Made by a program: the position numbers and the translations under genes. The notes beneath the pieces were generated by a model. It made no database searches. It saw only the letters and a list, made by a program, of their open reading frames with translations, and was not told where the DNA came from. From assembly GCA_963716725.1 (NCBI GenBank), contig CAVQUB010000021.1, positions 256,001 to 320,000 of the forward strand: 64,000 nucleotides of DNA, given 5' to 3'. Below, piece after piece: positions 15,950 to 21,509 of the stretch (its first letter is position 1; each line of letters opens with the position of its first letter). Source of the DNA: an uncultured delta proteobacterium. Its GTDB lineage: Bacteria > Myxococcota_A > Polyangia > Polyangiales > Polyangiaceae.

Positions 15950-17097
15950 CGAATACACTGAACCTCAAGCGCGGCGCGTCTCGAGCCAAGGACGAACTCG
16001 AAGCTGCGAGAGAGCTCTGGGAGGCCATCGGTCAGCCAGACATCTCGTTCTGCCTGTTCTTCTGCTCTCCCAACTACGACGTGAAGAAGCTCGGCCCGGC
16101 CCTCGCCGAGCACTTCGGCGCCTTGCCAATGCTGGGCTGCACGACAGCCGGAGAGATTTCGCCGACAGGCTACCTGAGCGGAGCGATCACCGGCATCAGC
16201 ATCGCTAGCCCAGACTTCAGGGTCGTGACGCGTCGCATCGACCAGCTCAATGCCTTCGATCTCGATGACGGTGAGAGGACGATCACTTCGCTCCTTGCAG
16301 AGCTCAAACAGGTCGGCGAACCACCGACGAGCGAAAACACCTTCGCGTTCTTGCTGGTCGATGGCCTGAGCCTACAGGAAGAGCGGGTGGTGGCGGGCCT
16401 GTGTCGCGGCATTGGCGACATCCAGCTTTTCGGCGGCTCCGCCGGCGACGAGGAGAACTTCTCGGCCACATACCTCTTCCATGACGGCGCATTTCACGAC
16501 AACGCGGCGGTGGTGGCTTTGGTGCAGACCCAGCGCCCCTTTCACGTCTTCAAGACCCAACACTTCGTGCCATCGGACGCGAAGCTCGTCGTCACCGGCG
16601 CAGATCCAGCCAATAGGGTAGTGACCGAGATCAACGGGGACCCCGCGGGCGCCGAGTACGCACGGCTCGTTGGCCTCGAAGTCGACAAGCTCACACCGAT
16701 GATCTTCGCGACCTACCCCGTGGTCGTGCGCCTTGGCGGCGACTACTACGTGCGCTCGATCCAGAAGGTGAACGAGGACGGGAGCCTCACGTTTTTCTGC
16801 GCCATCGACGAAGGCGTCGTGCTGACGATCGCGCAGGGCGTGGATTTCATTCAGAACCTCGAGGACGCCTTTGTAGGGGTCCAAAAGGCGGTGGGCGTGC
16901 CCGAGCTCGTCATCGGCTGTGACTGCATCCTCAGGAAGCTGGAGAGCGAGCAGAAGGGCATCAAGGCGCAGATCTCGGAGCTCATGACCAAGAACAACGT
17001 CATCGGTTTCGCCACCTACGGCGAACAGTTCAACGCGATGCACGTGAACCAGACCTTCACCGGCGTCGCCATCGGCGCGATGAGCGATGGCGAGTGA
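15946..17097 (+). CDS. nosP: FIST-domain nitric-oxide/heme sensor, NosP-like
   Basis: [74 protein letters not shown]; directly upstream of a hybrid kinase. Confidence 0.88.
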
Positions 17098-18874
17098 TGA
17101 ATTCAACGAGCTAGAGCTTCTCCGAAGCCGGAACGCTCGGCTCGAGAAGATCAACCGCGCGCTCATGGATCGGGTAGAGCGCTCGATGGACCAGCAGGGC
17201 AGCGCCTACTCTCTGTTCCAGACCGCGACTGCGATGGAGGGCGAGCTTCGCAAGCGAACCGCAGCGCTCCGCAGCACCATGGAGGAGCTCGAGCGCTCCA
17301 ACCGCGATCTGTCCACGGCCAAAGAACTCGCCGACGCGGCCAATCGGGCCAAGTCCGACTTCCTTGCCAACATGAGCCACGAAATCCGCACGCCACTCAA
17401 CGGCGTGTTGGGCATGGTGGGTCTGCTCCTGAAGACCGATCTGGGACCGACCCAAGAGCACTACGCCGAGACGGTCCGGCGCTCCGGCGACATCCTGCTC
17501 CGGATCATCAACGACATCCTCGATTTCTCGAAGATAGAGGCTGGTAAGCTGGAGCTGGAAAACACCAGCTACGATCTCAGGAGGGTCGTGGAGGACGCCA
17601 TCGAAGGGTTCGCCACGCGCGCTCACAACGCGCGGACAGAGCTGATCTGCGAGATCGCGCCTGAAGTCCCCCGAATCGTCAGCGGCGACCCTTTGCGGGT
17701 TCATCAGGTGCTCGCCAACTTGCTCTCCAACGCCATCAAGTTTTCCTGCAACGGAGACGTACGCCTCATCGTCGAAGTCCAGAAGGCACCTCCGGTCGAC
17801 GCCATTCGCTTCGAGGTTCACGACCAGGGGCAGGGGTTGAGCGGCGAGCAATGCACGCGCTTGTTCAGTGCGTTCACTCAAGCGGATACTTCGACCACGC
17901 GCCGGTTCGGCGGGACTGGCCTCGGCCTCGCCATCAGCAAGCAGCTCACCGAGATGATGGGGGGACGGATCGGGGTGCGGACTGCCATTGGCGAAGGCAG
18001 CACCTTTCATTTCACCGTGCCCTTCGATGCATCCGCGGCTCGAGCGACGGGCTGGGTCCCGAAGTTGTTCGACCGAACCGCCCTCGTCGTGGACGCGAGC
18101 GAAGGCAGCGGTCGGGCGCTGCTCACTCAGCTGGCGAGGCTGGGCCTTCACGCGACTCACCAGAGAAGTCTGGCCTCGGGGGCCAGCTGGCTCTCTGCCC
18201 AAGCTGGCGCCGTCGACTTGATCGTGGTGTCTCGCGAGACGGTCGGCAAAGACGACGCGGAGATCCACAGCGTCCTCGCGGCGAGCGGCCACCCCGAAGC
18301 GAAGACGCTGCTGCTGACGCCGTTTCTGGCTGACCTTGCGGAGTCGGCCGGCTCCACTGCCTACGACGCTGCCACGCACAAGCCGGTCACGCCCAGCCGG
18401 CTTCGAAGTGTCGTGGAGGCCGTGGTCGCGCCCGAGTTGAAGCCTCGACGCCGCAGTGTGAGCGTCCCGACCTCGAGACCCGCGCTCGGCGAGGTCGCCA
18501 GACCTCGGGTGCTCGTCGCGGAGGACAACCCCACGAACCAATTGGTCATCACCGCTCTCCTGGCGGAGCTCGGCTACGCAGCCGTCGTGGTCGGCAACGG
18601 AAGCGAGGCCATCGCCGCGCTCGAGGAGCCCCATGAAATTCGGGCTGTGCTCATGGACTGGCAGATGCCGATCATGGATGGAGTGGTGGCGACTCGCGAA
18701 ATCCGCCGGCTCGAAGCACTCCGGGGCACACGCGTACCCATCATTGGTCTGACCGCGCACGCGCTCAGCGACCAGAAGTCGGTCGCGCTCGATTCGGGCA
18801 TGGACGAATACCTCACCAAGCCGGTTCGTGAGGAGGAGCTGGCCCGAGCGCTGACGCGGTGGTGCGGAGTATGA
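17087..18874 (+). CDS. NosP-associated hybrid histidine kinase (NahK-like)
   Basis: N-terminal [27 protein letters not shown] coiled coil as seen in NosP partner kinases; [18 protein letters not shown]; degenerate REC plus canonical REC (AEDN, LMDWQMP, TKP). Confidence 0.88.
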
Positions 18875-18916
18875 GAGCCCAGAAGCGACCAGCGGCGCCG
18901 AAGCGGCGCCCCGCGC

Positions 18917-19412
18917 CTAGTGCCGCGCGGCCGAAGTTCGAGTGGATTCGCCCCTGAGACCTGCGCTCATTTGGGCTCTCACAGGAAGGGCGGAAGAGCG
19001 GAAGGATTTGGGGTGGTCAGGCGTTAGCCTCCGCAGGCCATTTCTGAGCGCGGTCACGTTGAAGTTGACGAGCAGGCCGACGGGCAACCGCGAAAGGCGC
19101 AGATAGGTGATGACCTGCGCTTCGTAAATCGGGAGCAGCCGCTCGACCGCCTTGAGCTCCAGGAGGATACGATCTGGAAGCGACCAGGTCGAGGCGATAG
19201 GCGCTGTCAAGGTGCACGCCTTTGTAGCGGATTGGTAGCGGTCGCTGCCGCTCGAACTTGAGCCGTCGTTCGGACAGCTCGGCAGATAGACAGGCCTCAT
19301 ATGCGGATTCCATCAGCCCTGGACCGAGATGCCGATGCACCTCGATCAGCGCACCGATCACCTCGTCCGTCCCATCCCCAAATCTTCCGAGCTTTCGCCC
19401 TTCCTGTGCCAT
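18917..19412 (-). pseudogene. GxxExxY family protein (PD-(D/E)XK nuclease-like), split by a 1-nt frameshift near 19178
   Basis: IEVHRHLGPGLMESAYEACL...YRLDLV in one frame continues as DRILLELKAVERLLPIYEAQVITYLRLS...GLLVNFN in another. Confidence 0.85.
18980..19408. repeat. imperfect 33/34-bp inverted repeats bounding the GxxExxY gene
   Basis: 18980-19013 CACAGGAAGGGCGGAAGAGCGGAAGGATTTGGGG versus reverse complement of 19376-19408 CACAGGAAGGGCGAAAGCTCGGAAGATTTGGGG (30 of 34 aligned positions match). Confidence 0.85.
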
Positions 19413-19444
19413 CCCCGTGTGGTCGGGCCTCACTCCGAAACAGT

Positions 19445-20100
19445 TGCTGTCCGGCCACCATCGGAATGTCAGCGTAGCGGCGTTCGAGCGCCTGGATGCC
19501 GGTCTTCTCGTCGACGCACACGATGTGCTCCTTCTTTGGCGTCTCGTAGTAGACGCGCAGCACGTCGTCGCGCTTCCCCCTGAACTCGTCGTCGTGCGAA
19601 GTCAGGTACATTTGTTGCCGATGCGGTTGCAGGTCAGCATCCTTGAGTATGCGGCCCACCGACCGGTCGCTGATCTGAATTCCTTGCGCGCGAACGTGCA
19701 CGCCAAGCAACGACGCTGACCAGTGCGTGACGGGCACGCCGACGTCGCTCGGCGGTCGACACGCTTCTGCTTCTACTCGAGCCGCTACGGTGTCCGAGAG
19801 AGAGGGCGGCCGTCCCGAGCGCGGGGCGTCCGCCAGTCTCTCGCTAGGTGCCGCGCAGTCGAAGCGCTTGCGCCAGTCGTCCACCGTGCGCACGTGCACC
19901 CCGAGGAGCCGGGCGATGTCCGTCGCAGGCACTCCGTCCGCCATCATCAACACGGCCTGCGCCCGACGAACCAGCCGCTGCTCCGCCCTGGCGGGTCGCA
20001 ACGCCTCCTCGATCCGCGCGCGCTCTTCAGCCCTCAGCGCGAGCGGAACCGTCGGACGACCACCGTGCGCTCGGCCCGCGAACGCGCTGTAGTCGATCAT
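19445..20100 (-). pseudogene. IS630 transposase, truncated after the first catalytic Asp
   Basis: RRAQAVLM..DIARLLGVHVRTVDDWRKRF, DAPRSGRP, HWSASLL, VCVDEKTGIQALER, PMVAGQ. Homology then stops, and no second D or E region is present. Confidence 0.85.
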
Positions 20101-20165
20101 GTCACCCCACTACACCGACGACACGCACACGGAAAAGAAACCAGCGAAACTTCTGCCGCGCGGCA

Positions 20166-21509
20166 CTAGTCGCTCGCGCCCGGGCGCGCGGCAACGCTGC
20201 GTCTGGGCGCGGCCGGCTCGCGCGGCGGATCAGCGAGCTCGTCGGCGAGATCGAAGGCCACGAAGCGCCCCGAGAGGTGCGGCGCTTCGCTGACCCACAG
20301 CGTGCGGCGACCACAGTCGAAGACGACGCCATGGGTGGCGATGTCCGCGTCGATGGCGCGCCGATCGCCCGCTGGCAGCGAGGCGCCACCTGCTGCCTTG
20401 CGATCGCGCAGGAGGCGTACCGCGTCCTCGACGGTCACGGGGCGGGTCAGGGTCGAGACGAGCTCGCGCCCTCGGGCCTCGCGCTCGAGCGTGGTGGTCT
20501 CGCGGCGCACCCGCTGGTTCTTCGGATCGCCCGCGAGGGGCCCCTCGAAGTGATTGGTGACCGCGGCCCGCGTGGGCAGCGCGCGGGCGTGGGGCGGCGA
20601 GCCCGGAACGCGCTCGATGGCAGAGGCGTGTCCGCCGGCGTCCGCGGCGATGACGATGTGGCTGACCATGGGCTCGCGCAGGGCAAATGCCTTCACCGCT
20701 TCGTCCACCGTGCGGGCGGTGGACAGCACGCGCCGGAGCGCGTGAACGACGGGCTCGCCCTGCGCTCGCGGTTCACCCGCGCGTCCGCCGTGCACCACCA
20801 GCGCCAGACCCTCGCGATTCATGCCGCTGACGACACCCGGCAGACCCGGCCAGGCCACCGAGGCGAAGGGGATCTGCCCCGCTTCGTTCACGAAGAAGAC
20901 CGCTTTCTGCTCGTCGAACACGTCGTGCACGTCGAAGTCGAAGGCGCGGGCCAGCAGGGTGTGTCCGTCCTCCGCGGCTTCTCGCGCGAAGGTGAAGCTG
21001 GTGCAGCCGATGAGCGGAGAGCTCTCGAATGAGAGCGCGATGTCGTAGAGCGCGTTCAAGTAGACGAAACGCTGATAGGTGGGGAAGAACCCGGTGTAGG
21101 GATCGGGGGCGAATCCGAGGGCAGCGGCGGCGAGCTCCCGGCGTCGCGCTGGATCGATCTCGCGGTCGAGATCACGATAGCGGAGCTGCGCCAGATCCAA
21201 GACCAGCCAGCGCAGTGGCGCCGGGCGCACGGAATGCTCGAACTGCCCGAGCAGGACGCGCTCGTTGTGCATCATGTCCTGTCGCAGCAGGCGCGCGTGG
21301 GAAAACCCGATCTCTTCCGGGCTTCCAGCGAGATGCACGACGCGCAGGCTGCCTTCCCGTGAGAGTCGTGAGCGGCCAAGCATGCCTTCGCTCACGCTGA
21401 CCGCGGGCGGCTCGAGGCGCGCTCGAAGTCCAATGCCAACGTGGCTCGCGCCGAGGCCGACGGCCAGACCGAGAACCGCGACCAAGACGGCGCGCCGACG
21501 ACGCGTCAC
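20166..21509 (-). CDS. C45-family autoproteolytic acyltransferase/hydrolase (Ntn hydrolase)
   Basis: GCTSF autocleavage site, LARAFDF, SGMNREGL, TNHF; N-terminal TM; stop codon coincides with the IS target CTAG. Confidence 0.85.
   Translation of the reverse strand: MTRRRRAVLVAVLGLAVGLGASHVGIGLRARLEPPAVSVSEGMLGRSRLSREGSLRVVHLAGSPEEIGFSHARLLRQDMMHNERVLLGQFEHSVRPAPLRWLVLDLAQLRYRDLDREIDPARRRELAAAALGFAPDPYTGFFPTYQRFVYLNALYDIALSFESSPLIGCTSFTFAREAAEDGHTLLARAFDFDVHDVFDEQKAVFFVNEAGQIPFASVAWPGLPGVVSGMNREGLALVVHGGRAGEPRAQGEPVVHALRRVLSTARTVDEAVKAFALREPMVSHIVIAADAGGHASAIERVPGSPPHARALPTRAAVTNHFEGPLAGDPKNQRVRRETTTLEREARGRELVSTLTRPVTVEDAVRLLRDRKAAGGASLPAGDRRAIDADIATHGVVFDCGRRTLWVSEAPHLSGRFVAFDLADELADPPREPAAPRRSVAARPGASD

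Follow-up and report, generated by a model that had tools for sequence, protein, structure and literature searches.

A GxxExxY nuclease gene between inverted repeat arrays, probably a cassette carried as cargo by an IS630-family insertion sequence

Is a small GxxExxY gene that is bracketed by inverted repeats a mobile element in its own right? The question arises from a 64,000-nucleotide stretch of an uncultured delta proteobacterium of the Polyangiaceae (GenBank assembly GCA_963716725.1, contig CAVQUB010000021.1, positions 256,001 to 320,000), which we call the window. An earlier note on this DNA had proposed that the gene and its inverted repeat (IR) form a self-mobile unit of ~430 bp within an unrelated insertion sequence (IS). 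We consider it probable that the IR represents the two arms of a GxxExxY cassette, that an outer element containing this cassette landed in an IS of the IS630 family, and that the cassette was frameshifted and has since been carried only as cargo.

The IR is real. A repeat search around the open reading frame (ORF) finds two arms of 44 nt, at 18973-19016 and 19372-19415, which are 77% complementary and lie 355 nt apart. Direct reading of the core (the 3' arm at 18980..19013 and the 5' arm at 19376..19408, both on the minus strand with the gene) pairs 30 of 34 positions, with one 1-nt gap. The core consists of CACAGG and then three GGAAGNNC octamers. The 5' arm begins 1 nt past the ATG and codes for residues 2-13 of the ORF, while the 3' arm lies just beyond the last conserved residues of the gene, exactly where the earlier note had placed them. 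The IR scores 20 by local alignment (match +1, mismatch -2). When the same geometry was placed at random in the window 389 times, no placement scored as much as 14 (maximum, 13). The same arms occur in 32 copies in this genome and recur in other genomes, and the stretch is present in contigs from public sequencing runs of nine studies, one of which bridges the empty site. These observations refute a chance match or an assembly artefact, to which we give next to no credence, and the contigs likewise rule out the chimeric assembly that the earlier note had raised as a concern. Rfam has no match in 18800-19600 at E up to 1.

The gene between the arms (19017..19412, minus strand, ATG at 19412-19410) is a GxxExxY pseudogene. 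Its matches to the family profiles are split into two pieces, positions 3-67 and 68-114, with 76.4 and 50.4 bits for TIGR04256 from NCBIfam (cut-off 35) and 72.9 and 49.4 bits for PF13366 from Pfam (cut-off 22). Because the two pieces are in different frames, the gene must be frameshifted. The lesion, which the earlier note overlooked, is 5 nt (19175-19179) in place of 4, and it interrupts the ORF after the catalytic D but before the E-x-K motif. (Of these residues, D61 does not vary among 11 aligned homologues, and E71 and K73 hardly do.)

The core of the gene is under purifying selection, with dN/dS of 0.05-0.21 in all six pairs compared. An AlphaFold model (pLDDT 95) has only PD-(D/E)XK proteins as structural neighbors: Cas4 SSO0001 (Z 7.6), Hjc (Z 6.1), and restriction enzymes. 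We rejected a more specific structural relative, as the neighbors from Foldseek and VIA were all generic PD-(D/E)XK folds, and a sequence search of the PDB gave 0 hits. A table in a survey of PD-(D/E)XK proteins lists the function of PF13366 as "Unknown" (PMC3424549). Our literature search found no paper on the function of GxxExxY, its repeats, or this architecture (the name was only mentioned in passing), and searching with the repeat strings returned unrelated primers only.

What, then, carries the gene? The earlier note was right that the unit sits inside an unrelated IS, which we assign to the IS630 family by its transposase, its terminal inverted repeats (TIRs), and the flanking TA. The IS is 1247 bp long (18920..20166, minus strand), with TIRs at ~18920-18949 and 20137-20166 and TA target duplications at 18918..18919 on the left and 20167-20168 on the right, both within CTAG. 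Its truncated transposase ORF (19447..20100, minus strand) retains the N-terminal ~218 residues, with the helix-turn-helix (HTH) domains and the first catalytic D only; it matches positions 1-170 of the 299 in NF033545 (111.9 bits, cut-off 100). We searched the genome (7.9 Mb in 35 contigs, 84% complete) and found 32 copies of the IS in at least 5 structural classes. Five are full-length (~1736 bp, with a complete transposase), four are of the window type (~1255 bp), nine are ~1068 bp, six are ~644 bp (~94% identity), and eight are further partial forms. Where the left end could be displayed, the target was CTA/G in 30 of 31 copies and GTA/G in one. The window IS is an internal-deletion derivative of the 1736-bp element. 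Compared to a full-length copy, it lost 480 bp (q620-q1100) at a junction at 19446..19447, which took the cassette's upstream leader, the upstream outer terminal repeat, and ~436 bp from the 3' part of the transposase gene. Undeleted forms at 19446/19447 are visible as loose ends in runs X1, X2, and X7.

The public runs also show what moved into this site. In run X7, from a population that is ~98% similar, a 7437-nt contig of an independent metagenome joins 18916 to 20166 and skips 1249 bp. This equals the IS plus one TA, so we take the contig to be the empty site. In runs X1 and X2, depth is ~60 over the IS versus 3-6 over its flanks. The locus is no chimera, and it was the entire IS that moved into this site. 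The earlier note had looked to an empty site to define the unit's own ends; the one in X7 spans the entire IS instead.

This genome contains three nested mobile layers: the IS630-family element, within it a ~540-bp element with outer repeats, and within that the GxxExxY gene between its arms. The middle layer, which has IS10-like terminal repeats and a 9-bp target duplication, is located in the last 40 bp of the IS. In full-length copies of the IS, ~540 bp intervene at its end, flanked by GGCCGAATC and GGGCGAATC (in gene orientation; 8 of 9 positions match). The nearest IS630 relatives from elsewhere (62-67% amino-acid identity) have no insert: their ORF stops 12-13 codons past RPKSW, and the target TA completes the stop codon. 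In the window, the retained duplicate is GATTCGCCC on the plus strand (18945..18953), and beside it is the downstream outer terminal repeat (18954..18975), a diverged IS10-like sequence that aligns with the right ends of elements in a metagenome-assembled genome (MAG), G001, which we describe below. This downstream repeat is found in 31 of the IS copies and nowhere else in the genome. The earlier note saw no target-site duplication. This is true of the window copy, because one outer end of its nested element has been lost, but the nested elements in full-length copies of the IS do have one.

The nested insertion also changed what the gene encodes. After the insertion, the GxxExxY frame reads through the 3' arm and the end of the IS (18917-19300 in the window, minus strand, and copies such as L001:758-1333). 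It continues into what used to be the final 10 codons of the transposase (ESTRTSAARH) and stops at a TAG to which the target TA contributes. As a result, the protein encoded by intact copies has 164 amino acids and a tail of foreign origin.

Within this genome, the cassette is a passenger, broken in most copies, and is copied only as cargo of the IS630-family element. All 32 copies of the IS retain the left end and the GxxExxY unit, and we found no arms or outer repeats outside the IS in this genome. Furthermore, 29 of the 32 copies share one complex lesion, CTTCC for TCGA. It is because the cassette never occurs outside the IS and is broken in 29 of 32 copies that we consider it a passenger, and the proposal that a ~430-bp unit is self-mobile in this genome fails on the same grounds. 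Given the further loss of 480 bp in the window copy, neither the transposase nor the cassette is functional there. (The retention of the cassette by all derivatives of the IS is not significant alone: we roughly estimate ~0.13 for six left breakpoints.) The three intact copies (C13:340437, C20:93865, and C33:68887) are all in the 1068-bp class, where the other six of nine are frameshifted; the frameshift allele is also present in the more diverged 644-bp copies. This spread of the two alleles over the classes suggests gene conversion among the IS copies. The genome has just one other GxxExxY gene (C14:2117-2464). It lies among three ~207-bp direct-repeat copies that contain GCACGCGGG-type tandem units in inverted pairs (L002:478-1851, G000:C14).

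The cassette has other vehicles in other genomes. A search for the intact protein, with one genome per species, gave 54 loci. When we compared the whole IS to these loci with blastn, only IS coordinates e1162-e1708 matched, which is the cassette; the transposase never did. This supports the earlier note's view of gene and IR as a discrete module. In G001, the cassette moves without IS630: there are about 50 copies, most of them with the gene deleted. The flanks of about a dozen 320-bp copies show terminal repeats on the outside, CTGGGAAATCCCCTCATTT... and ...AAATGAGGGGATTCCTCAG. We examined 17 repeat pairs from G001 and another MAG (MFD04944). Perfect 9-bp duplications accompany 10 of them; all 10 begin with G, and no two are at the same site. 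The duplications of 2 more pairs are nearly perfect. G001 has 55 outer-repeat ends at up to 1 mismatch and 52 exact 13-mers, as compared to 0 for the reversed control in both cases. We fetched 28 further G001 sites, and 27 are small cassette remnants (one is a 150-bp form with arms just 20 nt apart); the other (L233) has no arms and matches only a single end, over 13 nt. Gene-less derivatives, which the earlier note suggested looking for, do exist, for instance as internally deleted G001 copies that keep both ends and arms. Another genome, G225, has a second and unrelated type of outer repeat (GGGTGCYTCCCTGAAA) around GxxExxY, with 74 sites and ~33 elements of 579 bp. Of the 12 elements that we fetched from G225, 10 have perfect 9-bp duplications, and the ORF is intact in 7 of 8 copies of 578-579 bp. 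So, although further copies of the IR are indeed found in this genome and others, the IR does not bound the moving unit as had been proposed: in the relatives, that unit is bounded by outer repeats with 9-bp duplications.

Some details of these genomes are worth recording. Two 2-kb versions of the G225 element are not a larger partner element; both are the same element hit by an unrelated IS of the IS4 family. This 1428-bp IS (ends CATAGGCATTAACCC, 11-bp duplication) is identical in the two (L235 and L236; G225:C20:14118-16133 and C23:162554-164571). Its insertion points are mirror images, 25-35 nt from either end of the 579-bp element, so it seems to target that element's terminal repeat. In G001, several cassette elements (L013, L024, L036, L039, and L041) are in or beside another palindromic repeat (TGCCGGTCCGGCGCGGAATCC...), and one 9-bp duplication (GATTCCGCG) lies within it; this repeat may be a preferred target of cassette elements. 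Finally, the closest intact homologue (L004), which has both arms and degenerate outer repeats, comes from a MAG that bears the label Phycisphaerales, another phylum; its identity is 88% in amino acids and 81% in nucleotides. This is either a transfer across phyla or a binning error.

Which enzyme moves the outer element? Duplication of 9 bp of target is a hallmark of IS10. The outer repeat CTGAGGAATCCCCTCAT is identical to IS10-Right's outside end at 15 of the first 17 nt, with the IS10 sequence taken from a primer printed in PMC2705183; in the window, only the diverged downstream repeat survives. The combination of an IS10-like end and a 9-bp duplication favors a DDE transposase acting in trans. 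We lean somewhat towards this as the source of the 9-bp-duplicating transposition, and we think it unlikely that GxxExxY itself is responsible. The outer elements resemble the ends of IS10 and other IS4-family elements, and the miniature inverted-repeat transposable elements (MITEs) derived from them, in the match of their ends, in their 9-bp duplications, and in having many copies with internally deleted members. They differ in carrying a conserved ORF that is under selection, which MITEs normally lack, and in that none of the genomes we looked at yielded an IS4-family transposase with such ends. As candidate partners, we rejected the only IS4_1-like IS of G001, which has different ends, and the three IS4-like loci, out of 10, that we examined in Sorangium and MFD04944, which do not have such ends.

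IS10-like ends also occur without the gene. Sorangium sp. So ce1128 has ~20 ends of this type with no GxxExxY match beside them. (Together with two other Sorangium genomes, loci L250-L321 include at least 20.) Several of these ends are followed, after ~80 nt, by a recurring stretch that translates to ...PPPCEFSEEFEGM...; they may be tiny gene-less MITEs with the same type of end. In a Myxococcales MAG, three contigs (L256, L276, and L318) have an IS10-like end with the start of an ORF (MDGFEHERLDVYRAS...) ~100 nt inward. As far as it can be read before the contigs end, that ORF looks like the N-terminus of a four-helix-bundle protein.

Across phyla, it is the arms rather than the outer repeats that accompany the gene. 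Using aligned homologues of diverse origin, we fetched 80 GxxExxY loci that span many phyla, archaea among them. For 77 of these, the 200 nt before the gene could be scored against the 200 nt after it for an IR, with a threshold of at least 14. A flanking IR was present at 53 of the 77, versus 0 of 142 shifted controls (control maximum, 13). So the earlier note's question of whether other GxxExxY genes carry the same IR pair can be answered: most of those scored share the design. At 46 of the 53 loci with an IR, the arms are made of CNCNRAR heptamers, mostly CACAGAG, CACGGAG, or CACGAAG (CACRGAG-type), and their outer end is usually (TTC)ACCAC. The arms on the 5' side are rich in purines, look like Shine-Dalgarno sequences, and are found 0-30 nt ahead of the ATG. 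Mismatches between the two arms affect 3.6% of heptamer positions versus 12.8% of spacer positions (p=1e-10), which argues that the motif itself is constrained, and not pairing alone. We found no outer terminal repeats around the cassettes of other phyla: the second IR has a median score of 7 over 51 loci, and it is prominent at no locus other than L077 and five whose arms are doubled. Four paralogues in a Waddliaceae MAG were considered as markers of the cassette's ends and rejected, because they lie inside a larger duplicated block.

This architecture has a counterpart in the intervening sequences (IVS) of ribosomal RNA (rRNA). The IVS in the 23S rRNA of Coxiella is 428 nt long and has three tandem heptamers ahead of its S23p ORF; the first heptamer is where RNase III cuts, and the number of repeats differs among strains (PMC4990558). 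The rRNA IVS of Coxiella and Leptospira share with GxxExxY cassettes an ORF of ~120 amino acids in the loop of a long stem, arms of tandem heptamers just upstream of the ATG, a sporadic distribution, and an ORF that is often decayed (PMC4990558). In the window, the mRNA is predicted to be closed by a stem between the arms (minimum free energy -223.5 kcal/mol, z -4.7, none of 100 shuffles as good). Also, in five genomes, 9 of 18 genes of the four-helix-bundle family (S23p, TIGR02436) that lie outside rRNA are flanked by inverted arrays of 7-8-mers (control maximum, 11), with a unit that varies from cassette to cassette. Unlike rRNA IVS, which occupy helix 25 or 45 of 23S rRNA, the cassettes encode a PF13366 PD-(D/E)XK protein instead of the S23p/TIGR02436 four-helix bundle, they are located outside rRNA (0 of 40 GxxExxY loci scanned are in rRNA, and the window copy is in an IS), and their heptamer class is conserved with the gene family. 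The heptamer arms and the predicted stem therefore make the GxxExxY cassette IVS-like in design, with another ORF and outside rRNA.

Heptamer hairpins are also found without the gene. An Acidobacteriota genome (G002) has 120 double-heptamer hits versus 25 in the control, and many of these are intergenic hairpins of 130-180 bp that contain no gene; one locus has the order 5' arm, gene, 5' arm, loop, 3' arm. At one orthologous site in seven relatives, two have no insert, one has a spacer of ~30 nt, three have hairpins with other heptamers (of three types), and one has a decayed GxxExxY gene with CACAGAG arms. Across 60 genomes of that phylum, arrays are present in 16 of 21 with the gene versus 5 of 39 without it (odds ratio 21.8, where related genomes are not independent), or 15 of 20 versus 5 of 38 if two genomes flagged as unpublished are left out. 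We rejected a RAYT-like link between gene and solo hairpins, as this raw odds ratio shrinks to p=0.09 once the genes' own arms are discounted. In REP/RAYT (REPIN) systems, the gene for a Y1 (IS200-like) transposase is flanked by inverted REPs. The cassettes are like these systems in having a small gene between inverted short palindromic repeats, along with many gene-less intergenic hairpins; they are unlike them in that the flanked gene encodes a PD-(D/E)XK nuclease and not a Y1 transposase, and in the weak association of gene and solo hairpins after that discount. Free-standing PD-(D/E)XK homing endonucleases are another known system for comparison. There too a small and sporadic nuclease gene sits in otherwise conserved loci, with no duplication at the arms. 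Unlike those enzymes, GxxExxY has no known cleavage site or intron or intein context, and the Foldseek row for I-Bth0305I is weak (E 0.23).

How might these observations fit together? In our reading, a cassette is a small gene for a PD-(D/E)XK nuclease with an array of tandem repeats, 7-9 nt each, on either side, the two arrays being inverted relative to each other. One ~540-bp element, with IS10-type ends and a 9-bp duplication, would have inserted into the last 40 bp of an IS630-family IS, gained the frameshift, and then multiplied to 32 copies only as cargo of the IS, with the window copy losing another 480 bp. For intact cassettes, we suggest more tentatively that the heptamer arms could be sequence-specific sites in cis that are recognized by the cassette's own nuclease. 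If so, the nuclease might cut gene-less heptamer hairpins, and repair from a gene-bearing copy could spread the gene, much as in homing. Once transcribed, the arms would pair as a long stem, similar to those of rRNA IVS that are cut by RNase III.

Several observations weigh against our reading. The structural neighbors are weak (best Z 7.6, with Foldseek E above 0.02). At 24 of the 77 loci, no IR reaches the threshold, and there is no target duplication or direct repeat at the ends of the arms. The likeness of the outer repeats to IS10 ends points to a DDE enzyme. We found no partner IS with such ends in G001, in G225, or at the 3 loci examined of 10 that are IS4-like in a Sorangium genome and MFD04944, although absence from an assembly is not proof. 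Solo heptamer hairpins occur in genomes that have no GxxExxY gene (86 hits in G150 and 33 in G145), whereas G158 has 4 GxxExxY genes and 0 arrays of this pattern. And when 8 hits per gene are discounted for the gene's own arms, the contrast between genomes with and without the gene falls to 7 of 20 versus 5 of 38 (p=0.09).

The proposal that the ~430-bp unit of gene and IR is an autonomous minimal transposon, with GxxExxY as the transposase acting on the IR, could be extended to the elements with outer repeats. GxxExxY is the sole ORF ever found in two unrelated families of terminal repeats, it is under purifying selection, and no larger partner element was found. The ~33 near-identical 579-bp copies in G225, with their mostly intact ORFs, and the few gene-bearing and many internally deleted copies in G001, as expected for a pair of autonomous and non-autonomous elements, fit this idea as well. 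We nevertheless regard it as unlikely. PD-(D/E)XK enzymes are hydrolytic nucleases and are not known to have strand-transfer activity. Also, one outer repeat matches the IS10 end and comes with a 9-bp duplication, similar ends in Sorangium have no GxxExxY gene nearby, the unit is inert in the window's genome, and the cassettes of other phyla lack outer repeats and duplications. It is a different matter if the arms act only as RNA, as an IVS-like stem that host RNase III would cut to release or silence the ORF loop, with no role for GxxExxY on the arms. The stem predicted for the window, the identical design of the IVS that was studied experimentally in Coxiella (PMC4990558), the inverted arrays at half of the 18 four-helix-bundle genes, and the Shine-Dalgarno-like 5' arms are all consistent with this. 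But a stem alone leaves unexplained why CACRGAG-like heptamers persist across phyla where synonymous sites are saturated, and why mismatches between arms concentrate in the spacers; none of the 40 loci scanned is in rRNA, there is no Rfam match, and RNA run X20 yielded just 2 contigs, at depth 2. We consider action at the RNA level only to be somewhat doubtful.

Alternatively, the cassette might be ordinary cargo: hairpins and IS10-type MITEs would be independent of GxxExxY, which would be captured or retained in their loops and have a host function such as defence or repair. The gene-less hairpins in G150 and G145, the varied contents of the orthologous site in the seven relatives, the partial IS copy of this genome that lies in the loop of a CGCCAAG-type hairpin (described below), and the gene-less ends in Sorangium are what one would expect. 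We find this rather unlikely, as the heptamer class is tightly tied to the gene family (46 of the 53 loci with an IR), two unrelated families of terminal repeats carry GxxExxY as their sole ORF, and 33 mostly intact copies in one genome would be unexpected for neutral cargo. Our preferred reading is still that of a cassette that rides in outer elements and whose arms may be sites for its own nuclease. A broader version is that GxxExxY proteins are the mobility nucleases of pan-prokaryotic cassettes of ~420-700 bp, which would recognize the CACRGAG-type arrays that frame them and either copy themselves into other heptamer hairpins or drive 527-580-bp elements that duplicate 9 bp. We judge this version improbable.

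If GxxExxY were a mobility nuclease, these would be the smallest autonomous mobile DNA elements known, and there would be a function for two large families, GxxExxY and, by analogy, the four-helix-bundle S23p proteins of IVS. What is new here is that the GxxExxY family is tied to a fixed DNA architecture, inverted arrays of tandem heptamers, that was already known from rRNA IVS, and that gene-bearing copies multiply within genomes. This link makes the family's function directly testable, with a protein of ~125 amino acids and a defined repeat of 25-45 nt as its substrate. It also bears on the origin of IVS, a question that has long been open. In annotation, it accounts both for GxxExxY genes that turn up sporadically and for spurious ORFs running through the repeats. 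The window itself is ordinary, in that it contains a decayed passenger in an IS.

The IS630-family element has the features typical of its family: an HTH and DDE transposase, terminal repeats, a TA duplication in CTAG, a stop codon that is completed by the target TA, and short non-autonomous derivatives. It is unlike other members in holding a nested foreign element in its 3' end, which every derivative has kept. In the window, it adjoins a 595-amino-acid ORF for a hybrid histidine kinase/receiver protein (17087-18874), 44 bp past the stop codon, and interrupts no gene.

Among the other copies of the IS, deletions or truncations have arisen independently three times with junctions that differ by no more than 3 nt in position and lie 5-7 nt outside the 5' arm (just after ...CCATCCCCGTG). 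The copies concerned are G000 C1:35500, C11:120627, and C2:111950, along with five other ~644-bp copies. The region just outside the 5' arm may be a hot spot for breakage. Tandem duplications touch the arms at G000:C14:36042-36958 and G000:C4:85104-86308; one copy has three 74-bp repeats with the 5' arm in each, and in another, 125 bp are duplicated, beginning 8 nt outside the 3' arm. Lastly, at G000:C2:111922-112510, inverted heptamers of the CGCCAAG type form a hairpin whose loop contains a 504-bp partial IS (the left end and the cassette, cut 5 nt beyond the 5' arm). This genome thus has its own heptamer hairpins.

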